A stretch of DNA of 64,000 bases, from assembly GCA_903845055.1 (NCBI GenBank), contig CAIMWF010000147.1, forward strand, positions 12,182 through 76,181, written 5' to 3'. Position numbers and translations under genes: made by a program. The stretch is from an uncultured Bacteroidales bacterium (lineage in GTDB: Bacteria; Bacteroidota; Bacteroidia; Bacteroidales; FEN-979). The notes beneath the pieces were generated by a model. That model worked only from the letters and a program-made list of their open reading frames with translations. It searched no databases and was not told where the DNA came from. Every line of letters begins with the position of its first letter. Positions within the stretch are counted from its first letter, which is position 1. Below, one piece after another: positions 36,043 through 64,000 of the stretch.

Positions 36043-36684
36043 CTACTTAAACCGTTCGTCATTCTTTTTCGCGAAAAAGGCTACCTTTTCAAGCGAGGTG
36101 ATCATATCATACTCCTCCAGGTAAACGAACGGCGGAACATTCAGCGGCTTCGGTGTAAAATTCAGGATCCCCTTGATGCCTGCAAGTACCAGTATTTCAG
36201 CGCTTTCAGGTGCCTGTTCGGCCGGAACGGCAATGATCCCGATGGAGATGTTGTTCTGTTTGATGATCTCCGCCATCTGGCTGGTGTGATAACACGCAAC
36301 CCCGTCGTAAACACGGTTTATTTTTTCGGGATTGATGTCGAAAGCGGCAATGATGGCCAGTTTCGAACGTTTCCCCTTGAAATAGCTGATGATGGCTTTC
36401 CCGAGATTTCCCAATCCCAGGACAGCCACCCGCTGCCCGCGCTCCGAATCAATGATCTTCCCGATCAGTTCAATCAGTTCCTTGATATCGTAACCTTTCC
36501 GGAGATTGCCGGAATAGCCGATCAGCATCAGGTCGCGGCGCACCTGGACAGGTGTTATGTGAAGCATCTGGGCGATCTCGTGTGAGAAAACATGGGTCTT
36601 CTCTTTCGAAAGGATCATCAGTAAGGCGCGGCGATACTGGCTTAAACGCTCAACCGTTTTATGGGGCAAATTTTTTATAAACAT
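36043..36684 (-). CDS. rex: Redox-sensing transcriptional repressor Rex
   Basis: LPHKTVERLSQY, QVRRDL..GY, GLGNLGKAI, GIKGILNF. Confidence 0.95.
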   Translation of the reverse strand: MFIKNLPHKTVERLSQYRRALLMILSKEKTHVFSHEIAQMLHITPVQVRRDLMLIGYSGNLRKGYDIKELIELIGKIIDSERGQRVAVLGLGNLGKAIISYFKGKRSKLAIIAAFDINPEKINRVYDGVACYHTSQMAEIIKQNNISIGIIAVPAEQAPESAEILVLAGIKGILNFTPKPLNVPPFVYLEEYDMITSLEKVAFFAKKNDERFK

Positions 36685-37808
36685 GGTTTATCAATTGGAA
36701 GTCTGACAATAAATGTACTACCCGAGTCCGGGATGCTGCTTACTTCGATTTTCCCTGAATAATTGTCAATCAGTTTCCTGACGATGGAAAGCCCGAGGCC
36801 GCTCCCGGTTATATTTTTGGTTTTATCATTCTTGATCCTTACAAAGTCATCGAAAATTCTATCGGTTTCAACGGAGGTCATCCCGATACCTGTGTCCACA
36901 ACCCCTATTTCGAGGGTACCGTCACCCAGGACCAGGGTCGTATCAACGGATCCCCCGTCCTTGTTGTACTTTATAGCGTTGGATATCAGGTTATTGAATA
37001 TGATTTCCATCTCTTCTGCATCGGCCTGGATGACAACAGGGCCCTGGTGATGAAGATTCATCTTCACATCGCGCTGGATGGCATAGGGGCGCATGGTATC
37101 CATGGCCGTCCGGGCCACCATGACGAGGTCAACGTCGGTGATGTTCCTTTTTGCTTTCCCTGATTCAACGCGGGTAAGGTCCAGCAGGTCGAGGATCAGG
37201 CTGCGCATCCCCTTGATCCTGTCGAGCGAACGGTCGATCATGACGTCGTAGTCCTCTAACCTGGTTCCGTTCTGACGCTCGCGTATCATCCTCAGGTAGC
37301 CTTCGATGGCATTGAGGGGTGCCTTGAGTTCATGCGATAAAACCGAAAGGAAGGTAAACCGGATCTGTTTGCCGGTATCCTGCAGTTTGTTGGTCATCTT
37401 TTTCAGAAACACCCGCTTGGTGATGTTCTCGATGGAAGACTTAAGCTCCTGGGGGGTAAAAGGCTTTGGAATAAAATCGTAAGCGCCGTCGCTGGTGGCC
37501 TTAACAGCGAGTTCGAGAGAGGCGTAGGAGGTGATCATGACGACAATGATGTTCTTTTGCTTCTTCTTGATGTATTCCAGCACTTCAACCCCCTGGATGC
37601 CGGGCAGTTTGTTGTCGAGCAAAAGGATATCCGGTTCATTTGATTCGATGATCTCGATCCCGGCTTCACCGGTAGGAGCCTCGATCACGTCGAATTCAAA
37701 GGCTTCATCCATGAAGGGGTAATCAACCCGGAAATTCCGCAGGATACGGGTAATGCCGCTCCTGATGCCGGGTTCGTCATCGACGACGAGAATTTTTAGT
37801 GTTGACAT
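36675..37808 (-). CDS. Cytoplasmic hybrid receiver-histidine kinase
   Basis: N-terminal REC (VVDDE, LLDNKLP, KPF), HisKA SHELKAPL, NLISNAIKY, DTGIG, GSGLGL. Confidence 0.92.
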   Translation of the reverse strand: MSTLKILVVDDEPGIRSGITRILRNFRVDYPFMDEAFEFDVIEAPTGEAGIEIIESNEPDILLLDNKLPGIQGVEVLEYIKKKQKNIIVVMITSYASLELAVKATSDGAYDFIPKPFTPQELKSSIENITKRVFLKKMTNKLQDTGKQIRFTFLSVLSHELKAPLNAIEGYLRMIRERQNGTRLEDYDVMIDRSLDRIKGMRSLILDLLDLTRVESGKAKRNITDVDLVMVARTAMDTMRPYAIQRDVKMNLHHQGPVVIQADAEEMEIIFNNLISNAIKYNKDGGSVDTTLVLGDGTLEIGVVDTGIGMTSVETDRIFDDFVRIKNDKTKNITGSGLGLSIVRKLIDNYSGKIEVSSIPDSGSTFIVRLPIDKPCL

Positions 37809-37855
37809 ATAATTATTTCACTTCAAAAATAACGGAAAAATCAGTTAACAATACA

Positions 37856-38260
37856 TCAATTGTTATTTTTTAACAGTAAATTTTCAATCTCCTCTTTCAG
37901 CCGTTCCGAGCGGATTCCCTTGTCGAGAAAGCGATCAGCCTTGATCCATTTCCTGTTATTTTCATCGTTGATATCAAAACTGATTCCTGTTTCGGCAGTA
38001 ACACCGGTTGCAATGATGATCGGAACACCCGGATATTTCTTTTTCATTTTATAGCAAAGGATAAATCCACTGTCCTCGTTCTCCATCATCAGGTCGAGGA
38101 TGGCCAGGTCGGGCCTGGTCTTTTCCAGGATTTCCTCAGCTTCCTTCTGGCTTTCGGCAACAATCGTCTTAAAACCGAATTTCTGCACTTTCGCCTGGAG
38201 CTGGAAAAGATAATCCTGGTCATCATCAACGATCAGGATGGTGTAATTTGCTGGTTTCAT
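37856..38260 (-). CDS. Single-domain response regulator
   Basis: IVDDD, LDLMME; no output domain. Confidence 0.88.
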   Translation of the reverse strand: MKPANYTILIVDDDQDYLFQLQAKVQKFGFKTIVAESQKEAEEILEKTRPDLAILDLMMENEDSGFILCYKMKKKYPGVPIIIATGVTAETGISFDINDENNRKWIKADRFLDKGIRSERLKEEIENLLLKNNN

Positions 38261-38337
38261 ATTTTGATTTTATTTCTCAAAGTCAAGCTAAATTCTGCGG
38301 ATTGCCTGCGGCCCGGTTCTGCCATATCACTTCCATC

Positions 38338-40323
38338 TTATGCCCTTCCCCTGGGTACCGTGATCAGGAAAGTTGTTCCTGTCGGTCCTTCGGCAGGATC
38401 GGCGTTGGAGGATACCTGGATCTTCCCCTTGTGCATTTTAACAATCCCGTATATAAGCGCGAGCCCGAGCCCGGTTCCTTTTCCCATCTCCTTGGTGGTA
38501 AAAAACGGTGTAAAGAGCTTGTCCATGTTCTCCTTCAGAATTCCGCTGCCGGAGTCCGATACCGTAAAAACAATTTCGTCAGGGGTGCCTTCAACGCCAA
38601 CCTTGAGTTCACCACCGCCAGGCATGGCTTCAATGGCATTCTTTTCAAGGTTGGTGAGTACCTGCATCATCTGGTCGATGTCGAGCCATGCCACCGGATC
38701 GGAAATTTCCGACGATACCGAGAATGTGATGTTCTCCGGCTTTACGATCGAGTTAAGGCTGTGCTGCATGAATTTTACCACATCGGTTTCAGAGCGGTTC
38801 ACCTGGTTCTTGCGTGCAAAATTGAGCAGTCCGCTGACAATTTTCTTGCACCGTTCGGCCTGTTCCACGATCAGCTGGAGATCCTCCCGAACGCTGTCGC
38901 CCTCAGGGGCCTCATCCATCAGGATGTTGCTGTACATCGTGATAACCCCCAGGGGGTTGTTTAGTTCGTGTGCGATCCCCGCCGAGAGCTGCCCCATGTG
39001 GGCAAGTTTTTCCGACTGTTTCAGCGCCGCTTTCGCCTTCGCGAGTTTTTCGTTCGATACATTCAGGTTCCCGATGGAGTCGTGCAATTTTTCGATGGTA
39101 TAAGGCAGGCACATCTCGGTTTCGGCAAGTCCGTTCACAATGGCGCTGGCATGATCCACACAGGTGTTGTAGCCGCAAGCACCGCAGTTTAGATGGTCCT
39201 GCGGGGAGAATTTTCCCATGGAGTGCAGCGCTTTCAGCACCTCCTCGTTCGTCGGCGGTTCAAGCCGCCGGTCCTCCGGCGTGAAACTTTGTGAAAGATC
39301 CAGTCTCCCGTAGGTTTGCATTTCACCTTCCCATCTTTCCACATCGTTGTTCCTGAGTTTGTTGCTGACATATTCGCCTACGGCGGCACTGCGCGCGAAA
39401 CGCTTGCCGCCGGGTGATGTCCCCGGACCCATAATGCATCCCTCGCAACAGAGGAGCATCAGGTGTTTTTTCCTGATGTAACCCTCCTCGAACTCCCTGA
39501 TGGCCTCTTTGAAATTGACTTGTCCTTCGGCGATGATAACGTGTTCTTCGGGGATCGATTCCTGGTTGTTGGCGGTATAATAGAGCCCGCGGCTGATGGG
39601 AAAGATGGCGCCTTTGCCGCTGTGGGGCGGATCAAAGTCGGACGCTTCGGTGCTTTCTGCGCGGATGTTCAGTTTGTCGAACATCTCTCTCAGCTCAACA
39701 AAGGTGAGGACTTCGTCCACCTCGTCGGTTTCGGCTTTTTTAGCAAAACAGGGTCCAATGAAGACCACCTTCAGGTCCTTCCCGTGTTTTTCCTTCATCA
39801 CCCGGGTCATGGCAACCATGGGGGAGGCAATGGGCACAAGATAGGGGACCATGTCGGGATGGTAATGCCTGATAAAATAAACGATGGCGGGACAGTCGGA
39901 GGAAATATCCCCTTCAAAACCGCCCTCCTTGATCTTTTTCTCATATTCGCGGGCGACGATGTCGGCCCCGAAGGAGACCTCCGTGACGTAATCGAATCCC
40001 AGTTTCCGGATCATTCCCACCAGTTTCCGGTGGTCGGTAATTTCATCAAATTCGGCCGGGAAACTGGGAGCGATGCAGGCTGCGATGGTGCTGTCGGATT
40101 TCAGCAATGCGAGCACCGAATCTACCGAACGCAGCGGGATCTTGGCCCCCTGGCTGCATACCTTCACACAATTGCCGCAACCTATGCAGCGGTCGTTGAT
40201 CACTTCGGCCTGACCGTTGATAATCTTGATGGCCTTTACCGGGCATTCCCTGACACAGGTAAAACAGACCCTGCACCGGTCCTTGAGGGTGAATACCAGC
40301 TGCCGGTTGTAGGAGTGGCTCAT
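38338..40323 (-). CDS. Sensory [FeFe]-hydrogenase-histidine kinase fusion (group C1-like)
   Basis: 2x[4Fe-4S]; H-domain SSDCP / GPCFAKKAE / LLCCEGCIMG; FeS domain CGACGY..C..C; HisKA AHELNNPL; HATPase GTGLGL. Confidence 0.9.
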   Translation of the reverse strand: MSHSYNRQLVFTLKDRCRVCFTCVRECPVKAIKIINGQAEVINDRCIGCGNCVKVCSQGAKIPLRSVDSVLALLKSDSTIAACIAPSFPAEFDEITDHRKLVGMIRKLGFDYVTEVSFGADIVAREYEKKIKEGGFEGDISSDCPAIVYFIRHYHPDMVPYLVPIASPMVAMTRVMKEKHGKDLKVVFIGPCFAKKAETDEVDEVLTFVELREMFDKLNIRAESTEASDFDPPHSGKGAIFPISRGLYYTANNQESIPEEHVIIAEGQVNFKEAIREFEEGYIRKKHLMLLCCEGCIMGPGTSPGGKRFARSAAVGEYVSNKLRNNDVERWEGEMQTYGRLDLSQSFTPEDRRLEPPTNEEVLKALHSMGKFSPQDHLNCGACGYNTCVDHASAIVNGLAETEMCLPYTIEKLHDSIGNLNVSNEKLAKAKAALKQSEKLAHMGQLSAGIAHELNNPLGVITMYSNILMDEAPEGDSVREDLQLIVEQAERCKKIVSGLLNFARKNQVNRSETDVVKFMQHSLNSIVKPENITFSVSSEISDPVAWLDIDQMMQVLTNLEKNAIEAMPGGGELKVGVEGTPDEIVFTVSDSGSGILKENMDKLFTPFFTTKEMGKGTGLGLALIYGIVKMHKGKIQVSSNADPAEGPTGTTFLITVPRGRA

Positions 40324-42041
40324 CTGTTTTCTGTTGATGTTCTTATTACATGGAGCAACTCCATATTCTGTCCGCTGCCCGGCTTCGCCAGGAACTTTTC
40401 ATACAGGTCGAGGATGACAGGGTTCTTGTGCGATACTTTGATGATCTCTTCATCATCCACATCATAAAGTGCTTTCATCCTTGCCTTGAGGTTTTTTTCA
40501 TCGCCGCCGCGCATCTGTCCTCCGCCGTTGATGCATCCGTAAGGGCATGCCATCACCTCGATGATCTGGTAGTCGGCCCGTCCGGCTTCAACTTCATCCA
40601 ATAACGTCTTTGCACTGGCAAGCCCGTTAACGGCTGCTACGCTGAAAAAGGTTTTACCGGCCTTTACCCTGGCCTCCTTTTTGTTTTTTAATCCACGTAA
40701 TTCGTTGATTTTTATTGGATTCAATTCCTGTCCTGTTATCATAAAATGAACCGTACGCATCAGGGCTTCCAGGTGTCCCCCGGAGATGCCGAACAGGTTA
40801 CCGGCCGAACTCCGCATGCTGAAAGCCGTGTCGGATGGTTCTGGCTCGAGGCTGTTCATTTCAATGCCCAGTAGACGTATCATTTTGACCAGTTCCCTGG
40901 TGGTGAGAACGGCGTCAACGTTGCAGGTGATGCCGTCTTTCATCCGGTCCGACGCAGCTTCATGCTTTTTGGCAGTGCAGGGCATCACCGACACCACGAA
41001 AACGTTTTCAGGTTTCTGTCCCGCCGAGGTGGAGATGTAATTTTTTATGAGCCGGCCCATGATCTGCTGCGGTGAATTTGCAGTCGACAGGTTCGGCAGC
41101 CAGTGGGGCCTTGATTCCTCCACGTATCTAACCCAACCCGGGCAGCAGGAGGTGAGCATTGGCAGGTTTTCATGTTTGTTCAGCCTGCTGACAAATTCTG
41201 ATGCCTCTTCCATAATCGCCAGGTCGGCAGCCATGGAAACATCAAAGACCTGCTTGAACCCCAGTTTTTTCAATGCTGATCGCAAGAGGTTCAGGATGTC
41301 CTTGCTCGCTTTGATGTTGAATGCCTCAGCAACAGAACCGGGGATGGTCGGTGAAAACTGGATTACCGGGAACAGTTCAGGATTGCTCAGGGCATCAAGC
41401 ACCACCTGGAAGTTTGATTTTTCGGTCAGGGCGGCAGTTGGGCATACCATGATGCACTGTCCGCATTTGATGCAGCCCTGCATGTTCAGTCCTTTATTGT
41501 ATGAGGTCCCGATCCTGCTTTCGCTGCCGCGGCCCACCACGTCGATTGCAAAAGCCCCGATCACCTCGTCGCAGACCCGGATACAGCGGCCGCACAGGAC
41601 ACATTTTGCCGGATCACGCACGATGGAACTGCACGCCTTGTCGATCTGTACCTGGCGACGTTTGCCATGGTATTTACGTTCACGGATATTCATCCCGGCG
41701 GCAAGTTCCTGCAATTCACAGCTCCCGTTCCTTTCGCAATAGTGACAATCGTCGGGATGACCGGCAAGCAGCAATTCCACGAGGATCTTCCTGGCTTTCA
41801 GTACCCTGGGTGAATGGGTCTTGATTTTCATCCACTCCGTCACAAAGTGCGAACAGGATGGCACAAGTTCGGAGATCCCATCAACTTCAACGACACACAT
41901 CCGGCACCCGCCCGAGGGTGAAAAGCCATTCATGTAACAGAGGGTGGGCACCTGGATACCAATCCTGTCGAGCACATTTTTGATGGTTTCTCCACGCTTG
42001 GCCGATACCTCCTGGTCGTTAATCTCAATATTGAATTGCAT
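40320..42041 (-). CDS. hydA: [FeFe]-hydrogenase group A catalytic subunit (divergent HydA)
   Basis: N-terminal 2Fe-2S, His-ligated and 2x4Fe-4S clusters; TSCCPGW, MPCTAKKHE, EVMACPYGCINGGG. Confidence 0.9.
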   Translation of the reverse strand: MQFNIEINDQEVSAKRGETIKNVLDRIGIQVPTLCYMNGFSPSGGCRMCVVEVDGISELVPSCSHFVTEWMKIKTHSPRVLKARKILVELLLAGHPDDCHYCERNGSCELQELAAGMNIRERKYHGKRRQVQIDKACSSIVRDPAKCVLCGRCIRVCDEVIGAFAIDVVGRGSESRIGTSYNKGLNMQGCIKCGQCIMVCPTAALTEKSNFQVVLDALSNPELFPVIQFSPTIPGSVAEAFNIKASKDILNLLRSALKKLGFKQVFDVSMAADLAIMEEASEFVSRLNKHENLPMLTSCCPGWVRYVEESRPHWLPNLSTANSPQQIMGRLIKNYISTSAGQKPENVFVVSVMPCTAKKHEAASDRMKDGITCNVDAVLTTRELVKMIRLLGIEMNSLEPEPSDTAFSMRSSAGNLFGISGGHLEALMRTVHFMITGQELNPIKINELRGLKNKKEARVKAGKTFFSVAAVNGLASAKTLLDEVEAGRADYQIIEVMACPYGCINGGGQMRGGDEKNLKARMKALYDVDDEEIIKVSHKNPVILDLYEKFLAKPGSGQNMELLHVIRTSTENR

Positions 42042-42049: not shown

Positions 42050-43999
42050 TTATTTGAAGTAAATAGCGTTGAACTTACAACAGTCAAAACAGATACCGCA
42101 GCCGGTACATTTTGACTCCACGATGAAATGGGGTAATTTTACACTCCCGATGATGGCATTTTCAGGACATTTTTTCTTGCAGATGTTGCAACCGTTGCAG
42201 GCCTCGACATCGATAAAAAATGTCCGCAGGTCATGACAAATCCCCGCCTTGCATTTCCTGTCAAAAATATGTTCCTCGTATTCCTCCCTGAACCATTTCA
42301 GAGATGACAATACCGGGTTCGGGGCATTTCGTCCAAGACCGCAAAGGGAGGTATCGCGGATCACTTCGGCAAGGCTCTCTAGTTCCACAACACCCTTGAA
42401 CCGTTCAAGGGTTTCATGCGAGCTGTCTTCCCTCGGCCGGCGCGTGATCTCTTCGAGAATGTTCCGCATCCGCCTGGTCCCCTCCCGGCAGGGAATGCAT
42501 TTGCCGCAGCTCTCTTTCTGGAGGAACTCCATGAAATATTTCGACAGGTTAACCATGCAGGTATCCTCATCGAGGATGATGATGCCTCCCAGCCCCAGTG
42601 ACGATCCTAGCGCCCGGAGTGATTCATAACCGACGGGGGTATTAAGGTCCTGCACCGGGAGGCAAACGCCGGAAGGCCCGCCGAACTGGACGGCCTTCAG
42701 CTGTTTGTTGCCCTTGGTTCCTCCTGCAATGGAAACGACGATATCGGAAATGGTGGTCCCCATCTCAATTTCGATAAAACCCGTATGGGTCGCCTTGCCG
42801 GCGATGCTGAATATTTTTGTTCCCCGGCTTTCCCTGATCCCGATGGATTTGAACCAGCCGGGGCCGTTTTCCATGATGGAGGGAATGTTGGCCAGTGTTT
42901 CGATGTTGTTGACGATGGTGGGGTGACCGAACAAACCTTTCTCGGCAGGGAAGGGCGGTTTCGACTGCGGGATGCCGCGTTTGCCTTCAATACTGGCAAT
43001 CAGCGCGGTTTCCTCCCCGCATACAAACGCCCCGGCCCCCTGCCGGATATGGATATGCAGGTTGAATCCACTGTTGAAAATGTTTTCACCGACAAATCCG
43101 TATTCTTTTGCCTGTGAAAGCGCCTTCTCGAGAATGACCAGCGACTGCTCGTAATCGGACCTCACGTAAATGTAGGCGTTGCTCGCTCCTATGGCATAGG
43201 CCGAGATGGCAATTCCTTCGATGACCCTGTGGGGGTCGCCTTCAATAATGGCACGGTTCATGAATGCGCCCGGGTCACTTTCATCGGCATTACAGATGAG
43301 GTATTTCTGATCACTGCCGGTACCGAGGGCAAGCGCCCACTTCTTCCCGGTGGGATAACCTCCGCCTCCGCGCCCCCGGAGTTCACTCTGGTCCACAATC
43401 TCGCAAACTTTGTCGGACGTATAATTCAGGACGGTTTTATAGAGGGACCTATAACCACCGTGGGCAATATAGTCGTCAACCGACCAGGGTGAAATGATCC
43501 CCGAATTGCGGAGAATATTCCTGTGTTGCAACGCGAAAAACGGCATTTGCAGGACATAGGGCATGTTGGCCCAGTCTTCGTGACCGGGATGTTTATATTG
43601 ACCCAGCACCGTCTCTTCTAACAGCAGGTGATGGAATACAGCGTCAAGCAATCCCTCCACGCGGTCTTCAGTTGCGTGATGGAATGATATCCGCGATTTG
43701 CCAGGCAACTGTACGTCGAGCAGCGGTTCCATTGAACACAGGCCGATGCAGCCCACATGGATAATTTCGGCATCCAGGTTGTTTTTTTCCAGGTATTGTT
43801 CAACGGCTGTCAGGGTGTTCCCCGCCCCTGCGATCAGGCCGCAAGTGCCCGTTCCGATATAGATAACCGGGTGGATGACCTTGTCGCGTTTTACCAGGGC
43901 AAGCCGGTCCGAATTGGCTTTATCGAAGATGGTGGAATAACTTTTCAGGATTTTTTCGACCAGAAATTCTTTATTTTCCGGGGTGTTCAGAATGGCCAT
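42050..43999 (-). CDS. hydB: NuoF-like diaphorase subunit HydB with N-terminal thioredoxin-like 2Fe-2S domain and C-terminal 2x4Fe-4S
   Basis: RGRGGGGYPTG, NADESDPGAFMNR, GAFVCGEE, ESCGKCIPCREG. Confidence 0.9.
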   Translation of the reverse strand: MAILNTPENKEFLVEKILKSYSTIFDKANSDRLALVKRDKVIHPVIYIGTGTCGLIAGAGNTLTAVEQYLEKNNLDAEIIHVGCIGLCSMEPLLDVQLPGKSRISFHHATEDRVEGLLDAVFHHLLLEETVLGQYKHPGHEDWANMPYVLQMPFFALQHRNILRNSGIISPWSVDDYIAHGGYRSLYKTVLNYTSDKVCEIVDQSELRGRGGGGYPTGKKWALALGTGSDQKYLICNADESDPGAFMNRAIIEGDPHRVIEGIAISAYAIGASNAYIYVRSDYEQSLVILEKALSQAKEYGFVGENIFNSGFNLHIHIRQGAGAFVCGEETALIASIEGKRGIPQSKPPFPAEKGLFGHPTIVNNIETLANIPSIMENGPGWFKSIGIRESRGTKIFSIAGKATHTGFIEIEMGTTISDIVVSIAGGTKGNKQLKAVQFGGPSGVCLPVQDLNTPVGYESLRALGSSLGLGGIIILDEDTCMVNLSKYFMEFLQKESCGKCIPCREGTRRMRNILEEITRRPREDSSHETLERFKGVVELESLAEVIRDTSLCGLGRNAPNPVLSSLKWFREEYEEHIFDRKCKAGICHDLRTFFIDVEACNGCNICKKKCPENAIIGSVKLPHFIVESKCTGCGICFDCCKFNAIYFK

Positions 44000-44465: not shown

Positions 44466-44533
44466 AAGACAAAACAAAATAGAGTATCTGCTTTACAAAA
44501 ATAACGTTTTAATCTTAATAATGACATTTTTAA

Positions 44534-44568
44534 TTGTGAAATATTTAGCAATGTGAATAATTAAACAA
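44534..44568. promoter_or_regulatory. Tandem Rex-like operator pair
   Basis: TTGTGAAATATTTAGCAA (44534-44551) and ATGTGAATAATTAAACAA (44551-44568) in a divergent promoter region. Confidence 0.75.
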
Positions 44569-44657
44569 ATATTTTTAGGGACAAAATGCATATTATTTTT
44601 CGATCAATGAACCGGATTACCGCAGATATTCCTAATTTTGACATGAACAACAACACT

Positions 44658-56225: not shown

Positions 56226-56241
56226 TTTTCCGGGTGTTATG

Positions 56242-56589
56242 TTAATAAACGGGTTGAATGCCCGCCTCAAAAAGAATGCCGCTTGCCTTGTACATGGAAT
56301 AGGGGCTTTGTATGATGGTAATCCTGTTTTCCCTCGCCACCGTGGTCATCTCTTCGGTGACCCGCTTGTTCCTGACGAATACGACGCAGGTAATGTCGGA
56401 CATCTCCGCCGTGCGGATGGCCTGGACGTTGACCAGCCCGGTGAGCAGCAGGAGGTTGTCGGTTTTCACGGTGAGCACGTCGCTCATCAGGTCGGAGGCA
56501 AAAGCCATGTCGACAGAGCTTTCGTTGTTTTCAATACCTGTGATGACAGATCCATCGAGCAGGGCAACCACATCTTTTATTTTCATCAT
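56242..56589 (-). CDS. DRTGG-domain protein
   Basis: AFASDLMSDVL, LLTGL.N.QAIRTAEMSD, FVRNK. Confidence 0.85.
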   Translation of the reverse strand: MMKIKDVVALLDGSVITGIENNESSVDMAFASDLMSDVLTVKTDNLLLLTGLVNVQAIRTAEMSDITCVVFVRNKRVTEEMTTVARENRITIIQSPYSMYKASGILFEAGIQPVY

Positions 56590-56674: not shown

Positions 56675-56709
56675 ATGTTAAATAATTCACAATGTTAATA
56701 AAATAACAC
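56675..56709. promoter_or_regulatory. Tandem Rex-like operator pair
   Basis: ATGTTAAATAATTCACAA (56675-56692) and ATGTTAATAAAATAACAC (56692-56709); minus-strand TAAATTTG at 56637-56644. Confidence 0.7.
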
Positions 56710-56926: not shown

Positions 56927-57622
56927 TCAGGAGATGATGATCCGGAAACCATTGCCGTGGATGTTGGCAATTTCAATGGACGGGTCTGCTTTCAGGCACT
57001 TTCGCAAACGGGCGATAAAGACATCCATGCTACGGCCGTTGAAATAATTGTCGCTTCCCCAGATCTTTTCCAGGGCGTCTTTCCTCAGCAGGATCCCGTC
57101 TTTGGCAGAACAGAGCATTTTGAGCAAACTTGCCTCCTTGGGAGAGAGCTGGAGTGCTAACTTTTCATGGGTGAGCATGCGCAGGTTGTAATTGAAAAGA
57201 AACTTACCAACCCTGAATTCATTGGCTTCGGCATCGCTATCCGAACGTGCATGGTTGCGTTTAAGGATCGCGTGAAGTTTGAACAGCAAAACCTCCGAAT
57301 CGAAGGGTTTTGTGATGTAGTCATCGGCGCCCGCCCTGAATCCTTCGAGCATGTCCTCCTTGAGCGATTTGGCGGTGAGGAATATAAACGGTATTTCACT
57401 GTTTGCCTTCTTGATCTCCTTTGCAAGCGTGAAACCATCCATTTCGGGCATCATCACATCAAGGATGCAGATATGAAAGCGCTCCGCCCTGAAGGCCACC
57501 AATCCCTGTTTTCCGTCTGCTTTCAAAACTACTTCAAAATCATTCAGCTCCAGGTAAGATTTCATGATCGACCCGAAATTGGGGTCGTCTTCGACAAGCA
57601 ATATTTTAATTTTCTGATCCAT
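56927..57622 (-). CDS. OmpR-family response regulator (RprY-like)
   Basis: LVEDDPNFG, LDVMMP, FLTAK, YITKPF, WGSDNYFNGRSMDVFIARLRK. Confidence 0.92.
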   Translation of the reverse strand: MDQKIKILLVEDDPNFGSIMKSYLELNDFEVVLKADGKQGLVAFRAERFHICILDVMMPEMDGFTLAKEIKKANSEIPFIFLTAKSLKEDMLEGFRAGADDYITKPFDSEVLLFKLHAILKRNHARSDSDAEANEFRVGKFLFNYNLRMLTHEKLALQLSPKEASLLKMLCSAKDGILLRKDALEKIWGSDNYFNGRSMDVFIARLRKCLKADPSIEIANIHGNGFRIIIS

Positions 57623-57707
57623 GGTTTCAAGATTCTATCCTCAAACTTCGTTATCCGGTATTCAATATTCTTTTCAGGCATCAGGCCACCGTATCCATCC
57701 CCGGATC

Positions 57708-59579
57708 TTACAGGCCGGGCAAACTGATCTCAAAACTGCTCCCTTTCCCCACTTCACTCCTGATCTGGATCTCCCCGTGATGCGCCAGCACGATGGCTTT
57801 CACGTAACTCAGACCGAGCCCGAATCCTTTGATGTTATGAATGTTCCCGGAGGTCACCCTGAAAAACTTGTCGAAGACCCGGCGTTGGGTCTCCTGCGAC
57901 ATCCCCAGCCCTTTGTCCTTTACGCTAAAATAGAATTTCCCCGACCGGTTAAAGGAGAATATCTCGATCTCAGGTTTGACGATTGAATATTTATTGGCAT
58001 TATCGAGGAGGTTCAGCAACACATTCCTGAGGTGGTCCTCATCACCCTGCACCATCGGGTGTTCAGCATCAAGGCGGGTGGTGATGCATCCTTCCCTTTT
58101 TTCAATCTGGAGCCGGTAGTGCCCCACTGCCTTGTCGATAAGGTTGTTCATGTCAATCGGCGCGGGCCGGAGATTAAAATCGCGGCTGTCGAGCAGGGCC
58201 ATCTGAAGGACTTGTTCCACCCGCGTATTCATGCGCGAATTCTCCTCCTTGATGATCCGGGTGAAATTCCTGATCTTGTCGGGTTCGGCGATCACCCGCG
58301 GGTTGGTGATGGAATCGGCCGCAATGGAGATGGTCGCGATCGGGGTCTTGAATTCGTGCGTCATGTTGTTGATGAAGTCGGTCTTGATATCCGATATTTT
58401 CTTCTGGCGGATCATGACGACAATGCTCGCACCCGAGGAGAGAATGATGATAAGGGTGAACAGTACCGAACCAAGCAGCAGGAGCGACAGCGACTTCAGT
58501 ACATGGGTTTTCTGATCCGGGAAATTGACCAGCAGCAGGTCGGGTTTCCTGAACAGGTCGTTCGGGAAGAGCGAAACCTTGTATTGCGCGCTGTTGTCGT
58601 CGCTGTTGAAACCGGCCGACCTGATGGGCATGTGGTTCGTATCGTTTGAGGGGATAAATACCGCAAACTCAAATGGCAGGTTGATTCCCTTGTCGGCAAA
58701 GGATTTGCCCAGGGTTGCCTGCAGGGTTCTTTTATTGATCCTCTGCTGGATCGGGGCGGGTTTTGTTTCGATGGCGATGGCCATCTGCTTGATGAAATCC
58801 TGGATTTTTTTCGCCTTGTTGTCCAGTTTCTGTAAATTGTCGTTCCTTAATGTTTTCCTGTTTATGTTTTCCTCTTTCGGATGCCGGTGCTGGCGATGCT
58901 GGTTGTACTGAGGCACAATATACCGGATGGAGGTAGCCCCGCCGGGACTTACCGTATCTATGATAATCTCACCTTCATTTTCTCCGGGGCCTGGCCTGTG
59001 TGCACCGGGCATCATCATGGCCTCCGGCGAATTCAGGTCCATCAGGGAATCGATCCTGCTGAACTGGTCGTTCCATTCAAAGCTGAACTCATCCATTTCG
59101 GCGGGCGGCATCTCCTGGAAGACCTGCTCCATGCTCACGGTCACCGAATCAATCCCATGCTGAATGGGTACGACATTGTACTGGTACGAATAATGGATCA
59201 CCCCGGCTGGCGGACCGCGATGATGGTCGGGTGTGGGCGGCGGGGGGGGCGGGAGGGGGTGCTTTCCGCGTGCGACGGGCATTTCGTTCAATGCCATCAG
59301 CGAATCGAGCCGTTCCTTGATGACCTGCGTGGTATCCTTTGTAAAGGCCTTCACGATGCGCATGATGCTGTCGCCTTCAAAGTTCCGGCTGATGAAATAC
59401 ATGTTTTCCCTTGCCTCGAGGTTTTCGACCACGCTGCCAAGTGCGTCGTTGACGCTGCGCGAAAATTGCGATTCCTTAACCTGGAATGCGTTGCGTATCC
59501 AGAAAAACTGGACGATAATAATCCCCAGCAGTGAGATGCAGATGGAGACGATCAGGATATACAGCAACTTTTTATTCAC
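57708..59579 (-). CDS. Membrane sensor histidine kinase (RprX-like) with Pro/His/Met-rich periplasmic insert
   Basis: Two TMs; FINNMTHEFKTP, NLLDNANKY, GFGLGL. GTG 59579 preferred. Confidence 0.9.
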   Translation of the reverse strand: MNKKLLYILIVSICISLLGIIIVQFFWIRNAFQVKESQFSRSVNDALGSVVENLEARENMYFISRNFEGDSIMRIVKAFTKDTTQVIKERLDSLMALNEMPVARGKHPLPPPPPPTPDHHRGPPAGVIHYSYQYNVVPIQHGIDSVTVSMEQVFQEMPPAEMDEFSFEWNDQFSRIDSLMDLNSPEAMMMPGAHRPGPGENEGEIIIDTVSPGGATSIRYIVPQYNQHRQHRHPKEENINRKTLRNDNLQKLDNKAKKIQDFIKQMAIAIETKPAPIQQRINKRTLQATLGKSFADKGINLPFEFAVFIPSNDTNHMPIRSAGFNSDDNSAQYKVSLFPNDLFRKPDLLLVNFPDQKTHVLKSLSLLLLGSVLFTLIIILSSGASIVVMIRQKKISDIKTDFINNMTHEFKTPIATISIAADSITNPRVIAEPDKIRNFTRIIKEENSRMNTRVEQVLQMALLDSRDFNLRPAPIDMNNLIDKAVGHYRLQIEKREGCITTRLDAEHPMVQGDEDHLRNVLLNLLDNANKYSIVKPEIEIFSFNRSGKFYFSVKDKGLGMSQETQRRVFDKFFRVTSGNIHNIKGFGLGLSYVKAIVLAHHGEIQIRSEVGKGSSFEISLPGL

Positions 59580-59617
59580 GGTACAAAAATAAGGAAAGCA
59601 TACAGTCAATTCGCAGG

Positions 59618-59714: not shown

Positions 59715-60506
59715 ATGAAAACGTACCCGATTAACCTTAAAATGATGTTCATGCTGGCAGCTGCGGCGATGCTGGGGATTTTTATCACACGACCCGCTTA
59801 CGCGCAGGAAAACGGCGGCAGGGGATCGAAAAAAATTACCTTAAAGATTGTCAGCAATGACAACGGGAAAACGACGGTGATCGACACCACCATGACCTAT
59901 CCCGATTCTGTCATGACCGATTCGATAAGGAAAGAGGTTGACAAGGTAATGGAAATGGGCAGGGGCCACGGCCATGCCCGCATCAGGATGCATAAAATGC
60001 CGGAAGGATTTGATTACAATTTCGAAATGCCCTGCCCCGCCGACTGCCCGATGAGCATGAAAGATATGGAGGATTTCGACTTCGAAGGTATGATGCCGGG
60101 TGAAGATATGGAGCAGGAGATGGAACAGTTGGCGCCCATGATGAGACACCACATGACAAGGTCGGATGGCGGACGCCAGTCCCTGTCGGACATTTTAGGA
60201 GATATTCCCATGGACCGGGTTGAAAGTTATTCGATCAGGGATCACAAACATGGTAAAAGGATCGTCATCGACCTGAAGGAGGCCCCCATGTTTGAGCACC
60301 AGCAAAGGGTCATTTACATTCATGGTGACGGAAGAAATAACCATGCAGGCAACCACCCGCATCACAAGGTGAGGGTTTACGTCAATCCGGGTGATGATCA
60401 GAAGGTGGACAAATCACAGGATCAGGATGTGACGCCGCCACCTCCGCCGCCACCACCTCCTGCGGCACAGCCCGATAAGACCACAACCAAGAAACCCAAA
60501 ATCTAA
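59715..60506 (+). CDS. Secreted Met/His-rich hypothetical protein with poly-Pro tail
   Basis: Signal peptide ..AYA-Q; many Met and His; PPPPPPPPP. Confidence 0.75.
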   Translation: MKTYPINLKMMFMLAAAAMLGIFITRPAYAQENGGRGSKKITLKIVSNDNGKTTVIDTTMTYPDSVMTDSIRKEVDKVMEMGRGHGHARIRMHKMPEGFDYNFEMPCPADCPMSMKDMEDFDFEGMMPGEDMEQEMEQLAPMMRHHMTRSDGGRQSLSDILGDIPMDRVESYSIRDHKHGKRIVIDLKEAPMFEHQQRVIYIHGDGRNNHAGNHPHHKVRVYVNPGDDQKVDKSQDQDVTPPPPPPPPPAAQPDKTTTKKPKI

Positions 60507-60548: not shown

Positions 60549-60624
60549 AAAACTGCCGCCTGATTAGCGGCAGTTTTTTTTTTTGTAAAATAAAAAGCTG
60601 CCTGGTTTCCCGGGCAGCTTTTTG
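60549..60624. terminator. Two adjacent intrinsic terminators between convergent genes
   Basis: aaaactgccgc..gcggcagtttt and aaaagctgcctgg..ccgggcagcttttt. Confidence 0.8.
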
Positions 60625-60641: not shown

Positions 60642-62435
60642 TTAGTACCTCTTGCGGGCAGTGTAGTGCGTGTGAAGAAGTTCATGCGATTTATGACCCA
60701 GCGGTTTTTCGAGGAATTCTTTGTATATCTCGGCAATTTCAGGGTTTTCGTGTGATTTGCGGATGGGCATTCCCATGTCCTCTTCGTAAATGGCCATTTT
60801 GCGTTTTGTGCGGATCTCCTTGTTGGTAGGGATTGGCTGCCCGCCACCACCCAGGCATCCGCCCGGGCAGGCCATGACTTCGATGAAATGATAGTTTGCC
60901 TTGCCATCCCTGACATTCTGCATGACGGTTTTGGCATGAGCCAGACCATTGGCCACCGCGCATTTCAGTTCAACACCTTCCAGGAAGCTCCACTCGGGTT
61001 TGACCTTTTCGATTTTGATGGTTGCTTCCCGCACCTCTCCTTCAGTTCCGCGGACAGGGGTGATGTTTAGCCCGTCGAACGGCACTTCGCGGCCGGTTAC
61101 GATCTCATATGCGGTACGCAGGGCAGCTTCCATGACACCTCCTGTTGATCCGAATATGACTGCAGCGCCGGAGGAGGTGCCCATGAAGCTGTCGAATTTT
61201 TCGTCGGGAAGTTCGTCGAATTCCAGTCCTGCCTGTTTGATCATGATCCCAAGTTCGCGGGTGGTCAGCACGTAATCGACATCCTTATACCCGCTTGAAC
61301 GCATTTCGGGGCGGTTGGCCTCGAATTTCTTCGCAGTGCAGGGCATGATGGAAACCGAAACCACATTCTTCGGATCGAGTTTGCGTTTCTGGGCATAATA
61401 GGTCTTGGCAAGGGCCCCGAACATCTGCTGGGGCGATTTGCAGGTTGACAGGTTAGGCAGGAATTCAGGGAACGTATGTTCAATGAATTTGATCCAGCCG
61501 GGAGAACATGAAGTTGCCATCGGGAGTGTCACGGTGGGATCTTTGTCCACCAGCGCTCTTTTCAGGCGGGTAAGCAATTCGTGACCCTCTTCAATAATGG
61601 TCAGGTCGGCCGTGAAATCGGTATCAAGCACCGAGGAAAAGCCCAGCCGTTTAAGCGCTGCGACCATTTTACCGGTAACGATTTTCCCGGTTGCCATTCC
61701 AAGGGCTTCGCCAAGGGCGACACGCACTGCCGGGGCCGTTTGCACGACTACGTGTTTGGTTGAATCGTAGATCGCATCCCATACCTGGTCGATATAGTTG
61801 CGTTCGATGAGGGCGCCGGTCGGGCAGCGGTTCACGCACTGGCCGCAATTGGTACATACGACTTCGAACAGCGGATGTTCATGAAAGGTGGAGATCTTCA
61901 TCTTGTCACCCTTATACGCTACACCAAGTGCACTGACGCTCTGCAGTTCCTCACAGGTGCGCACGCAGCGCTGACAACGGATGCAACGGCTGTCGTCCTT
62001 GATGATGGCCGTATTGAACATGTCGATGGTATATTTCTTGCCGGGAACCAGGTCAAGAAACAGGTGGTCGCCGGTGAGCATTTGTGAGGCCAGGCCCTGC
62101 AGTTCGCAGTTGCCGTTTTTGTAGCATTTGGTGCAATCGGCGTTGTGTTCGGATAGAAGCAACTCAACGATGTGTTTGCGTGCCATGCGCACCTTCATGC
62201 TGTTGGTGTGGATCACCATGCCCTCTGCTGCCGGGGTGGCGCAGGAAGCCGGCAGGTTTTTGACCTTTTCCTGTTCGACGACGCATACCCGGCAATTTCC
62301 GGCCACGCAAAGGTCTTCATGATAGCACAATGTGGGAATATGAATGTTCAGTTGGCGGGCGGCTTCAAGGATGGTGGCACCTTCATCCACCGAGATATTG
62401 ATGCCGTCGATTGTCAGATTAATTTTATTAGCCAT
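60642..62435 (-). CDS. hydA: [FeFe]-hydrogenase group A catalytic subunit (third complex)
   Basis: Start MANKINLTIDG at 62435; QTAPAVR, TSCSPGW, MPCTAKKFE, EVMACPGGCLGGGGQP. Confidence 0.92.
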   Translation of the reverse strand: MANKINLTIDGINISVDEGATILEAARQLNIHIPTLCYHEDLCVAGNCRVCVVEQEKVKNLPASCATPAAEGMVIHTNSMKVRMARKHIVELLLSEHNADCTKCYKNGNCELQGLASQMLTGDHLFLDLVPGKKYTIDMFNTAIIKDDSRCIRCQRCVRTCEELQSVSALGVAYKGDKMKISTFHEHPLFEVVCTNCGQCVNRCPTGALIERNYIDQVWDAIYDSTKHVVVQTAPAVRVALGEALGMATGKIVTGKMVAALKRLGFSSVLDTDFTADLTIIEEGHELLTRLKRALVDKDPTVTLPMATSCSPGWIKFIEHTFPEFLPNLSTCKSPQQMFGALAKTYYAQKRKLDPKNVVSVSIMPCTAKKFEANRPEMRSSGYKDVDYVLTTRELGIMIKQAGLEFDELPDEKFDSFMGTSSGAAVIFGSTGGVMEAALRTAYEIVTGREVPFDGLNITPVRGTEGEVREATIKIEKVKPEWSFLEGVELKCAVANGLAHAKTVMQNVRDGKANYHFIEVMACPGGCLGGGGQPIPTNKEIRTKRKMAIYEEDMGMPIRKSHENPEIAEIYKEFLEKPLGHKSHELLHTHYTARKRY

Positions 62436-62470
62436 ATCTTGTTGGTATATTTTCTTGTTAATACTTGGGA

Positions 62471-63637
62471 TTAGTAGATCATCTCTTCCTTGAAGTTGTT
62501 CACGATGGAGGAAAAGGAGTTGGCAACGGATTGACCCAGACCGCATTTTGCCGTGATCTTCATGCTTTCGCTCAGTTTCATGAGCTGATCGAGGTATATT
62601 GCTTTCTTTTCACCTTTCTTGACAGCGACAATGCCTTTCAGCAGCTGCTGACAGCCAACGCGGCAAGGGGTGCATTGTCCGCAGGATTCTTCCTCGAAAA
62701 ATTCGAGGTAGTTGTGCAGGACATTATACATGGACCGCGAGCTGTTAAAGATCATCATTGAGCCTCCGGTGGGCACGCCCTCGAAACCGATGACGGTGTC
62801 TTTGAATTTCTTGCGGGGTACGCAGAAGCCTGAAGCGCCTCCGACCTGCACGGCCTTTGTATCGCCGTCGCCGAACTCATCCACAAATTTGTCGAGGGGC
62901 ATCCCAAGTTCAAGTTCATAAATACCGGGGATGGGCGTGTCGCCTGAAACGGAGAATACTTTGGAACCACGGGAGTCGGTGGTACCGAGTTTGCGGTACT
63001 GATCCGGCCCGAGCCGCATGATCATCAATACGTTGACAAATGTTTCAACGTTGTTGATGACGGTCGGTTTTTTCATAAAACCGCTCGTGGTGGGGTAGGG
63101 GGGCTTGTTGCGGGGTTCACCGCGTCCGCCTTCCATCGATTCGAACAGGGCGCTCTCTTCACCGCAGATATAGGCACCCGATCCCATCCTGATTTCAATG
63201 GTAAAATCGAAACCAAGTTTTTTGGCATGCTCGTGGTAAATGGCAAGTTCCTTTACCAGTTCCGGAACCATGAACTTATACTCGCCCCTGAGGTACATGT
63301 AGCCTTTTTTAGCTCCGATTACCTTGCCGCAGATGGCCATTCCTGAGAAAACCTTGCGGGGAACGCGGTAAAGGATCTCGCGGTCTTTGAAGGTGCCGGG
63401 TTCGCCTTCGTCGGCATTGCAGACGACATACTTTTCATCACCAGGGGTTTCGGCCGTGTATTTCCACTTCATGGCTGTCGGGAACCCGGCGCCGCCGCGA
63501 CCGCGGAGACCTGAATCCAGGAGTTCCTGTAAAATCTCTTCATTTGTACGTTCCAGGGTAGTTGCTAACACCTTATATTTTTCGTTGGAATATTCCCCGA
63601 AGATTAAGTCAACTCTTTTAAGGGTTTGTTCTGACAT
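62471..63637 (-). CDS. hydB: Short NuoF-like subunit (388 aa), non-bifurcating-type motifs
   Basis: RGRGGAGFPT, NADEGEPGTFKDR, KPPYP, GGASG, ESCGQCTPCR; no extra Fe-S domains. Confidence 0.9.
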   Translation of the reverse strand: MSEQTLKRVDLIFGEYSNEKYKVLATTLERTNEEILQELLDSGLRGRGGAGFPTAMKWKYTAETPGDEKYVVCNADEGEPGTFKDREILYRVPRKVFSGMAICGKVIGAKKGYMYLRGEYKFMVPELVKELAIYHEHAKKLGFDFTIEIRMGSGAYICGEESALFESMEGGRGEPRNKPPYPTTSGFMKKPTVINNVETFVNVLMIMRLGPDQYRKLGTTDSRGSKVFSVSGDTPIPGIYELELGMPLDKFVDEFGDGDTKAVQVGGASGFCVPRKKFKDTVIGFEGVPTGGSMMIFNSSRSMYNVLHNYLEFFEEESCGQCTPCRVGCQQLLKGIVAVKKGEKKAIYLDQLMKLSESMKITAKCGLGQSVANSFSSIVNNFKEEMIY

Positions 63638-63660
63638 GACTGTTTCTCCTATTTTCTAAG

Positions 63661-64000
63661 TTATTTTTGAATATATTCGCTTATGATATCATGCACCTTT
63701 TCCGAGGTCAGGCCGCTGTATGGCGTGTCGTTGATCAGCATGGCCGGTCCTTCGTGGCACCATCCCAGGCAGTTGGTTTCGAGCAGGGTGAACTTCTTGT
63801 TCGGTGTGGTTTCGCCGACTTTGATCTTCAGCATGTCTTCCAGCGTCTGCACGATGGTTTTCTTGCCGTGCATGTCGCAGGTAATGGTTTTGCATACCCT
63901 GATGACATATTCGCCGCGGGGTTCGGTGTCGAGGAATGAATAAAAGGTGGCGGTTCCGTAAACCTGGGCAGCCGAAAGGTCAAGTTCCTTTGCGATATCG
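63661..64000 (-). CDS. hydC: NuoE-like subunit; 5' end outside the window
   Basis: The frame extends to the edge: AQVYGTATFYSFL..VCKTITCDM..NCLGWCHEGPAM. Confidence 0.88.
   Translation of the reverse strand, partial: DIAKELDLSAAQVYGTATFYSFLDTEPRGEYVIRVCKTITCDMHGKKTIVQTLEDMLKIKVGETTPNKKFTLLETNCLGWCHEGPAMLINDTPYSGLTSEKVHDIISEYIQK

Follow-up and report, generated by a model that had tools for sequence, protein, structure and literature searches.

Three HydABC-type [FeFe] hydrogenase sets, three sensor-type H-domain proteins and candidate Rex operators in one conserved Bacteroidales locus

Gene content of the locus

A stretch of 64,000 nucleotides (nt) from contig CAIMWF010000147.1 in the metagenome-assembled genome (MAG) of an uncultured Bacteroidales bacterium (GCA_903845055.1), called here the window, was analysed for a cluster of [FeFe]-hydrogenase and regulatory genes that runs from position 36043 to the window end, where 25 genes were recognized by open reading frame (ORF) listing and Pfam and NCBIfam scans. 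The Fe_hyd_lg_C family (PF02906) was found by the Pfam scan in exactly six ORFs of this locus, the same six that an earlier model reading of the letters alone (the sequence-only reading) had named as [FeFe]-hydrogenase-domain genes, and a whole-genome scan gave no PF02906 match in the rest of the 3.95-Mb host assembly (95% complete, 175 contigs). The contig runs 1.4 kb past the window, completing the NuoE-like gene hydC3 (154 amino acids, aa, in full) and continuing with its promoter region and then truA, so the locus ends just past the window. A chimeric MAG contig was ruled out, since the gene order is retained in 7 relatives.

None of the maturase genes hydE, hydF and hydG lies in the 64-kb window, as the sequence-only reading had noted; it had named their absence from the genome as a ground against its interpretation, and all three were found on other contigs above the NCBIfam cut-offs (hydE on contig C99, 345.9 bits; hydG on C40, 497.2 bits; hydF on C73, 498.6 bits). 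Its assignment of the DNA to a Bacteroidota host agreed with the labels of the closest homologues and with the presence in the window of Por_Secre_tail proteins of the type IX secretion system (T9SS).

Catalytic HydABC sets

Three catalytic HydA proteins, each accompanied by its own NuoE and NuoF homologues, had been proposed, and the Pfam and NCBIfam matches together with a motif alignment support this arrangement, with all the genes of the three sets on the minus strand. Set 1 comprises hydA1 (40320-42041; PF02906, E = 1.9e-84; TSCCPGW, MPC, EVMACPYGC), which scored 415 bits with TIGR02512 (cut-off 406) and 668 bits with NF040763, below its cut-off of 765; the NuoF-like hydB1 (42050-43999; 649 aa; GAFM, GAGAFVCGEE, GGPSG; C-terminal 2x[4Fe-4S]); and hydC1, coding for a NuoE-like [2Fe-2S] subunit (44001-44477; PF01257, E = 1.9e-45). 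Set 2 is formed by the NuoE-like hydC2 (48139-48618; PF01257, E = 1.7e-49), the catalytic hydA2 (48693-50609; PF02906, E = 1.3e-94; NF040763, 898.7 bits, cut-off 765; TSCCPGW) and hydB2 (50479-52272; 597 aa), which codes for a bifurcating-type HydB with an N-terminal 4-Cys [2Fe-2S] domain, a flavin mononucleotide (FMN) domain and C-terminal 2x[4Fe-4S], and shows the signatures GAFM, GAGAFVCGEE and GGPSG. The true start of hydA2 is probably near 50468, since the profile match begins at residue 52 of the ORF. Set 3 contains the catalytic hydA3 (60642-62546, likely start near 62435; PF02906, E = 9.2e-97; NF040763, 866.4 bits), the short NuoF-like hydB3 (62471-63637; 388 aa; GTFK, GSGAYICGEE, GGASG), devoid of extra FeS domains, and the NuoE-like hydC3 (63661-64000), cut by the window end.

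In an alignment of the six H-domains, hydA1 and hydA2 presented all four H-cluster cysteines and the Cys299 relay (motifs TSCCPGW, MPC..K and E(V/I)MACPxGC), and both were above the TIGR02512 cut-off. The motifs are named L1, L2 and L3 and residues carry CpI numbering, in part after PMC8163306. The N-terminal thioredoxin-like [2Fe-2S] domain of HydB1 has three of the four Cys of the HydB2 domain. Published criteria assign to bifurcating HydB proteins Ala/Glu at position 232, Met at 234 and GGPSG at 427-431 of Thermotoga maritima HydB, and to non-bifurcating ones Thr/Ser at 232, Lys/Ser/Ala at 234, no GGPSG and Tyr for Phe (PMC7311640). By their HydA and HydB signatures, complexes 1 and 2 are of the electron-bifurcating HydABC type (group A3 type).

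HydB3 departs from this pattern. Its GTFK aligns with G231-A232-F233-M234 of T. maritima HydB (7p5h_B), placing T and K opposite A232 and M234; its GGASG stands opposite the GGPSG of 427-431; and its GSGAYICGEE, compared with GAGAFVCGEE in 7p5h_B, has Tyr for Phe in the FMN-site motif. The N- and C-terminal FeS domains are absent from it according to Pfam, and its best match among solved structures is HoxF (5xf9_A), which is NAD-reducing and non-bifurcating. Judged by these signatures, the HydB of complex 3 is of the published non-bifurcating, ferredoxin-independent NADH type, which is new here, and the three HydABC sets are not equivalent, two being of the bifurcating type and one of the NADH-only type.

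The L1 motif of hydA3 reads TSCSPGW, with Ser at the aligned Cys300 cluster-ligand position. The same motif is present in Acetobacterium woodii HydA1 (7q4v_A) and is kept in 7/7 genus relatives, so an assembly error was ruled out as its source. The matching residue of CrHydA1, C115, is reported as crucial for cluster binding (PMC5855289).

Sensor-type H-domain proteins

The other three PF02906 proteins share two N-terminal [4Fe-4S] motifs, the lack of the Cys299 relay and an exact C-terminal Cx2Cx4Cx16C, features that match those listed for the M2f (group C) and M2e (group D) subclasses (PMC8163306). They stand in three signalling contexts, as the sequence-only reading had recognized: fused to a histidine kinase, joined to a PAS domain beside a PP2C phosphatase, and grouped with GHKL, DRTGG and PHP genes.

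The kinase-fused sensor (38338-40323, minus strand; PF02906, E = 2.8e-45, plus HisKA and HATPase_c) is arranged as 2x[4Fe-4S], H-domain, Cx2Cx4Cx16C, HisKA and HATPase_c, with the motifs SSDCPAI, GPC and LLCCEGC; the hydA1 stop and the start of the sensor gene share 4 nt. The proton-relay Asp was invariant in 79/79 sequences (the window plus 78 related loci), and the four H-cluster Cys and the H-box AHELNNP were likewise kept in all 79.

The PAS-type sensor is encoded on the opposite strand (44586-46526, plus strand; PF02906, E = 8.5e-41; TANCPAV, GPC, FYDEGC). Its true start is likely at about 44658, the position given by the sequence-only reading, since a length of about 622 aa prevails among its close homologues. 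With Pfam the C-terminal domain scored below threshold (PAS_9, E = 0.0071; 17 bits, cut-off 27), and the AlphaFold model, with a mean predicted local distance difference test score (pLDDT) of 73 and values of about 85-92 over the domain, had PAS/LOV structures as its best Foldseek matches (probability 1.00); the PAS fold is thus supported by the predicted model. Gly occupies the Met353 position. The L3 motif is FYDEGC, compared with FYCEGC in relatives, which puts Asp at the equivalent of the cubane ligand Cys499; a placement of the missing Cys at the Tyr of FYDEGC was rejected, as a wider alignment puts the Cys of the relatives opposite the Asp.

This substitution extends over a clade. Among the 120 close homologues of the PAS sensor (identity at least 71%), 119 matched the motif pattern and had Asp (94), Asn (24) or His (1) at the Cys499 equivalent, and none had Cys. 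Orthologous loci at 69% identity or more had Asp in 24 and Asn in 7 of 31, in contrast to those at 50-58% identity, where Cys was present in 9/10 and Asn in 1/10. The other three H-cluster Cys were kept in the L1, L2 and L3 columns of all 41 orthologous loci and the window, and Cx2Cx4Cx16C matched in 120/120 close homologues. The PAS protein thus presents the accessory clusters, the missing Cys299, the Cx2Cx4Cx16C and the PAS domain of group C (M2f) sensors, and departs from them in lacking one of the four H-cluster Cys; the proposal of three different sensor classes holds for three sensor-type proteins, with this qualification for the PAS one. A PAS sensor clade with Asp/Asn for one H-cluster Cys, as read from these alignments, is new here. 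In CrHydA1 the C362D variant, in which the third of the four ligand Cys is replaced, still incorporates [2Fe], with an activity below 2.5% and a more positive cluster potential (PMC5855289); it is equated with the PAS-sensor Asp position by the order of the four cysteines. By analogy, the clade could represent a potential-shifted slow sensor, or a clade losing its cofactor. Kinase fusion is common in the wider family, since the 77 nearest representatives of 50%-identity clusters included 27 with HisKA, 29 with HATPase_c, 17 with PAS_8 and 2 with GGDEF.

The neighbouring gene codes for a PP2C/SpoIIE phosphatase (46829-48013, plus strand; PF07228, E = 2.3e-12) whose model (pLDDT 87.8) shows a PP2C fold at residues 3-234, with Z scores of 25.6 to 3pu9_B and 23.0 to SpoIIE 5ucg_A. 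Residues 235-394 form a confidently modelled alpha/beta domain of 160 aa that had no Pfam match; its best structural match was NuoG (7awt_G, Z 9.6), and subdomains of NuoG and molybdopterin formate dehydrogenases gave Z scores of 7-9.6. The gap between the PAS sensor and PP2C genes (46527-46828) is 302 nt long in the window, whereas relatives such as G019 have some 100 nt there, and the PP2C ORF of the window begins with GTG.

The third sensor belongs to a six-gene cassette, on the minus strand, that stands upstream of hydB2A2. Its genes code for a HATPase_c-only protein (52707-53261; PF02518, E = 3.9e-18), a PHP phosphoesterase (53318-54061; PF02811, 35.5 bits, cut-off 26.4), DRTGG-like protein a (54058-54396; PF07085, 22.0 bits, below the cut-off of 25.2), the M2e/group-D-like sensor (54410-55816; PF02906, E = 5.5e-21; SPFCPAI, TPC, ELRACDESC), an RsbT/SpoIIAB-like GHKL protein of Ser/Thr kinase type (55809-56270; TIGR01925, E = 1.1e-17, below the cut-off, and source names of homologues) and DRTGG-like protein b (56242-56589; PF07085, 23.3 bits, below the same cut-off). 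The GHKL gene stop overlaps the sensor start. The sensor has Fer4 domains, the four cluster Cys, Thr at Met353, and neither Cys299 nor PAS; its Cx2Cx4Cx16C reads C-GI-C-GSPT-C-x16-C and is followed by some 40 residues up to the C-terminus. On these residues it has the features of the TamHydS-type group D (M2e) sensors (PMC8163306), and its 120 best homologues were Bacteroidota-labelled or unlabelled records. A complex of this sensor with the GHKL protein was predicted at 0.46 (runs of 0.39, 0.51 and 0.46), with three controls scoring 0.00 at best, the partner pLDDT being at least 79 and the runs agreeing in at least 92% of contacts; in the calibration, 116/157 solved complexes and 2/215 mismatches reached the mark, with 18/157 at 0.60 or below. 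The prediction is weak support and was not counted as evidence of binding.

Rex and its candidate operators

The redox-sensing repressor gene rex (36043-36684, minus strand; NF003995, 198.2 bits, cut-off 126; Put_DNA-bind_N and CoA_binding) closes operon 1, after the kinase-fused sensor, a single-domain response regulator consisting of REC only (37856-38260, minus strand; Pfam) and a hybrid REC-HisKA-HATPase_c kinase (36675-37808, minus strand; Pfam). Rex was 91-97% identical in 6 genus relatives. The gene ribF (FAD synthetase/riboflavin kinase; window 35102-36031) begins 11 nt past the rex stop on the same strand. Co-transcription with operon 1 is possible, and the HydB of that operon requires FMN.

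Candidate Rex operators were searched with the published consensus TTGTGAAnnnnTTCACAA (PMC6391272), and their conservation was followed in seven genus relatives. Tandem Rex-like boxes (44534-44568; 2 and 3 mismatches) lie between the divergent promoters of hydC1 and the PAS sensor, and this block was kept in 8/8 genomes with diverged flanks. Upstream of operon 3, a pair of boxes (56675-56709) was identified by consensus match and cross-genome position: at least one box at no more than 3 mismatches was found at the same place in 8/8 genomes, irrespective of whether the group-D cassette or the small ferredoxin-like gene described below comes first in the operon, two boxes being scored in G021 and G016 and the second one recognized elsewhere by eye only. 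Upstream of hydC3, past the window end, there are two boxes that flank a TAnnTTTG element, presumably the Bacteroidota -7 promoter motif; the proximal box was found in 7/7 genomes with both 7-nt half-sites invariant, and the distal one at no more than 3 mismatches in 4/7. One further box (53299-53316; 3 mismatches to the strict consensus, 1 to a relaxed one) falls within the 56 nt that precede the HATPase_c gene.

These candidate operators before all three hydABC operons, conserved in otherwise diverged intergenic DNA, are new here. A Rex protein is thus encoded together with boxes at 0-3 mismatches conserved in 7-8 genomes, the sequence marks of Rex-controlled operons, and Rex control of all three hydABC operons is likely on this basis. 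With its conserved candidate operators, Rex is a further, fourth regulatory layer beyond the three sensors named by the sequence-only reading. No paper on a Bacteroidota Rex regulon including hydrogenases was found among open-access papers and bioRxiv.

Genome-wide, the relaxed consensus gave 34 sites at no more than 1 mismatch, 4 of them in the locus; others precede ORFs resembling, by eye only, nuoA, gdhA and ppdK. One box (1 mismatch) is situated between a gdhA-like gene and a divergently oriented [NiFe] hydrogenase operon outside the window (G000:C97:42409-50235), which codes for a small subunit with a twin-arginine translocation (Tat) signal and a large subunit (PF00374, 777.9 bits); its further ORFs resemble, by eye, cytochrome b, a maturation protease and hyp genes. 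No boxes at 2 mismatches or fewer were detected upstream of hydE, hydF and hydG. An inverted repeat, AATTTAGA-N5-TATAAATT, lies past the window end, about 130-150 nt upstream of hydC3 (L017, G000:C147) and upstream of the Rex boxes, in 7/7 genomes, and may be the site for another dimeric regulator.

Conservation and distribution

Forty relatives were scanned for PF02906, with the caution that matches do not equal copy numbers: at least five were found in 23/24 genomes of the genus, and matches were present in 12/16 other families of the order. Maps made with tblastn showed the same gene order in 7/7 genus relatives. In one of the genomes (G013:C133, L031-L033) about 16 kb are inserted between hydC2 and the PP2C gene.

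Relatives of the kinase-fused sensor numbered at least 567 in species-representative genomes. The best 80 of these loci came, by title, from Bacteroidales, Prolixibacteraceae, Draconibacterium, Lentimicrobiaceae and Rikenellaceae MAGs, plus one labelled Syntrophothermus, and their neighbours were counted wherever there was enough flank, dropping matches below 40% identity. The sensor was directly preceded by hydA1 in 60/73 loci and had hydB1 and hydC1 nearby in 63/69; the REC protein was found in 72/72 and the REC-kinase hybrid, downstream, in 68/68. Less constant were rex (46/62), the PAS sensor (39/61) and the PAS sensor together with PP2C (37/61). Such a locus is usual in the genus, and its core occurs widely among Bacteroidales MAGs. 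The patchy presence of the group-D cassette in the genus, considered below, is new here.

Other genes of the locus and its surroundings

Beside hydB2 lies the gene of a small thioredoxin-like, ferredoxin-like protein (52290-52688, minus strand; PF01257, E = 3.6e-4, a weak match; 3 Cys) that is 82-97% identical in 7/7 relatives and has three of the four Cys of HydB2. An RprY-like response regulator of the OmpR family (56927-57622, minus strand; NF051850, 286.8 bits, below the cut-off of 370) and a histidine kinase with a long N-terminal region outside any Pfam family (57708-59609, minus strand; HisKA and HATPase_c) were kept between the operons in 7/7 relatives. The divergent protein encoded at 59715-60506 has no known family, a hydrophobic N-terminus and 33-50% identity in relatives; poly-proline runs occur both in it and in the 57708-59609 kinase, and the pair is kept in the genus between operon 3 and hydABC3. 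A strong hairpin (60549-60577) lies between this family-less gene and hydA3. Operon limits were not decided by a scan for sigma-70-type promoters and terminators. Outside the locus, the window has a low-GC region (about 14000-25000; GC content 0.37-0.45 against about 0.51 elsewhere) that codes for BNR/sortilin-like proteins with T9SS Por_Secre_tail domains and for ORFs that had no Pfam match.

Discussion

We estimate at about 0.6 the probability that this conserved locus gathers the full [FeFe]-hydrogenase set of an uncultured, Prolixibacteraceae-like Bacteroidales bacterium, placed under Rex and three sensors. In such an arrangement, Rex would keep the three hydABC operons off until NADH/NAD+ rises, and the three sensors would signal either H2 or their own cluster redox state, tuning which hydrogenase is produced or active. 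With reduced ferredoxin at hand and H2 higher, the bifurcating enzymes would be used; with H2 held very low by consumers, the NADH-only enzyme would be. The PAS sensor, with Asp/Asn for one cubane Cys, would be a low-turnover, potential-shifted variant and not a standard H-cluster protein. The sequence-only reading, in which combined His/Asp and Ser/Thr signalling switches between hydrogenases as H2 pressure changes, as in syntrophic growth, is supported in part: the gene content agrees with it, and switching by H2 and a syntrophic life of the host would be further steps.

A further step, which we consider improbable, is that the three sensors form a three-channel H2/redox gauge. Their active sites differ, with a relay Asp in the kinase-fused protein, Asp/Asn for a cubane Cys in the PAS protein and Thr at Met353 in the group-D protein, and these variants might confer different H2 affinities or potentials that, together with Rex, would choose between bifurcating and NADH-only H2 production. 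If so, the PAS clade would offer the first case of a natural [FeFe] H-domain whose H-cluster cubane has either a ligand other than Cys or an open iron, and the choice would span the H2 range of a fermenter living beside hydrogen consumers.

Several observations weigh against placing the locus under Rex and three sensors. On the output side, the switching of hydrogenases by H2 is purely inferred, no DNA-binding output regulator at the locus was assigned to any of the three sensors, and the Pfam scan gave no STAS domain among the 25 locus proteins, so the locus is not a canonical partner-switching module of the RsbW/RsbV/RsbU type; the PP2C gene and the GHKL kinase-type gene are, besides, in different operons. 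The six-gene group-D cassette is present in 4/7 relatives and absent in 3/7, and is therefore dispensable. As for the operators, the Rex-like matches in the window at 3 mismatches were not above chance (8, against a shuffle mean of 4.9, with 12/100 shuffles reaching 8), so conservation across genomes was relied on; the relaxed consensus was shaped after the local sites were seen; and the operon 1 boxes do not cover the inferred -7 element but stand about 30-70 nt before it. For complex 3, the F/Y "position 367" of PMC7311640 is residue 312 by count in 7p5h_B, and the identity of the position is assumed from the motif. Finally, the PAS protein may have no bound H-cluster: Asn, a poor Fe-S ligand, occupies the substituted position in 24/119 close homologues, and among more distant proteins P0122 (53% identical) has no cluster Cys at any of the three motif positions and P0133 (45% identical) has none in L2 and L3, its L1 being outside the alignment. 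By sequence, P0122 and P0133 are apparent pseudo-hydrogenase sensors; both have Asp/Glu in L2 and P0122 has Asp in L1, with none in L3.

The last point leads to the alternative that the PAS protein is a degenerate pseudo-sensor devoid of an H-cluster, which would leave the locus with only two working H2 sensors. The Asp/Asn in the window and in all 31 loci at 69% identity or more, next to Cys in 9/10 loci at 50-58%, the Asn of 24/119 close homologues and the loss of cluster Cys at the covered motifs of P0122 and P0133 speak for it; however, the other three Cys are kept in the 41 orthologous loci and the window, Cx2Cx4Cx16C is universal among the close homologues, and the engineered CrHydA1 C362D still takes up the [2Fe] site (PMC5855289). 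We consider this alternative doubtful.

We regard it as unlikely that the sensor-type proteins are extra subunits of HydABC, or ferredoxin/FeS redox sensors on it, which would report electron pressure, and not H2, in the manner of BfuT. The translational coupling of the kinase-fused sensor to hydA1 by the 4-nt overlap, and the position of hydA1 directly before it in 60/73 loci, would suit a subunit, as would the three accessory clusters in each of the three proteins and the missing H-cluster Cys of the PAS one. In Hydrogenedentota, group C proteins beside BfuABC are treated as a T subunit, and H-cluster motifs are described as hard to find in the group C1 set (PMC11406978). In contrast, the four H-cluster Cys are kept in the kinase-fused and group-D proteins, and the characterised relatives TamHydS and TmHydS bind the H-cluster and react with H2 (PMC8163306). 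In 4/80 loci (L080, L084, L087 and L092), moreover, tblastn mapped no hydA1 beside the sensor, the 10-kb upstream flank being certain only in L087.

Quite unlikely is that control of the hydrogenases lies essentially with Rex (NADH/NAD+) and enzyme thermodynamics and that the sensors act elsewhere, for example on fermentation-product pathways as hfs does for ethanol, an idea that draws on the Rex-like operators before all three operons, the lack of an evident sensor-linked DNA-binding regulator at the locus and the Thermoanaerobacterium saccharolyticum hfsB deletion, which alters ethanol yield and adhE transcripts and not simply hydrogenase genes (PMC5707799), but is at odds with the tight and persistent linkage of the sensors to hydABC across families and with the OmpR-type pair (56927-59609) kept between the operons in 7/7 relatives.

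Uncultured Bacteroidales are abundant fermenters of sediments, lakes and digesters, and their choice between bifurcating and NADH-only H2 production would set the H2 passed to methanogens and other consumers. With three enzymes, three sensor types and Rex in one compact conserved unit, the locus can be compared across genomes, and its natural variants (the relay Asp and the Asp/Asn at the cubane ligand) match engineered ones in model enzymes, making the question of sensing and signalling testable with recombinant proteins. The value for follow-up lies in the combination of two bifurcating-type enzymes and one NADH-only-type enzyme with three differently coupled sensors, candidate Rex operators and the Asp/Asn substitution at a cubane ligand in the PAS sensor clade.

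Comparison with known systems

No paper describing this Bacteroidales locus was found among open-access papers and bioRxiv. Every module is of a known kind and nothing in the locus overturns current knowledge; their combination in one locus is not yet described. The sequence-only reading had placed the modules in Firmicutes and Thermotogae; they are indeed known ones, but kinase-fused and PAS group C proteins beside HydABC/BfuABC are also found in Hydrogenedentota (PMC11406978).

The group-D sensor resembles TamHydS of Thermoanaerobacter mathranii in its 2x[4Fe-4S], the missing Cys299, a hydroxyl residue at Met353, Cx2Cx4Cx16C and the lack of PAS, and the TamHydS locus likewise pairs a putative group D (M2e) sensor with a bifurcating group A hydrogenase located downstream (PMC8163306). 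Our locus differs in its Bacteroidales host and in having, instead of an AraC regulator, two DRTGG-like genes, PHP and a second HATPase gene.

Group C (M2f) sensors such as T. maritima HydS, Ruminococcus albus HydS and Thermoanaerobacterium hfsB are of the PAS type and are accompanied by a Ser/Thr kinase and a phosphatase. The PAS sensor shares with them the 2x[4Fe-4S], the H-domain, the C-terminal cluster motif, PAS and a PP2C neighbour, and has Gly at Met353 like TmHydS (PMC8163306); in that literature Rex belongs to the same regulatory picture (PMC5707799, PMC8163306). Unlike them, it belongs to a clade with Asp/Asn for one Cys, and its PP2C neighbour carries an extra 160-aa domain and has no adjoining kinase gene. 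HydDB distinguishes C1 (histidine-kinase-linked), C2 and C3 (phosphatase-linked) classes (PMC5037454), and in Hydrogenedentota both PAS- and kinase-domain group C proteins had C3 best hits (PMC11406978); because histidine-kinase-domain proteins can be C3 best hits, the HydDB subgroup cannot be named from architecture.

In the BfuABC-BfuT systems of Hydrogenedentota, several HydABC/BfuABC types occur per genome with adjoining PAS/histidine-kinase group C proteins, and one BfuB subtype, which lacks both the N-terminal [2Fe-2S] and the C-terminal 2x[4Fe-4S] domains, is read as non-bifurcating (PMC11406978). Here, in another phylum, a single 28-kb locus unites all the types and also contains a group-D cassette and rex.

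HydB3 has the T/K, no-GGPSG and fewer-FeS features of the non-bifurcating NADH-dependent enzymes Hyd1ABC of Syntrophomonas wolfei and HydAB of Syntrophus aciditrophicus (PMC7311640), and a Tyr in the FMN motif that is assumed to be the one of their criteria. In contrast to those enzymes, complex 3 is known from sequence alone, coexists with two bifurcating-type sets and has a hydA3 with the TSCSPGW of the bifurcating A. woodii HydA1.

For Rex, the closest parallel is Caldicellulosiruptor bescii, where electrophoretic mobility shift assays (EMSA) established that Rex controls the FeFe and NiFe hydrogenase genes and rex, and where operators of the TTGTGAAnnnnTTCACAA type precede these genes (PMC6391272). 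Here, each of the three hydABC operons is preceded by predicted boxes, and a further box is close to the [NiFe] operon.

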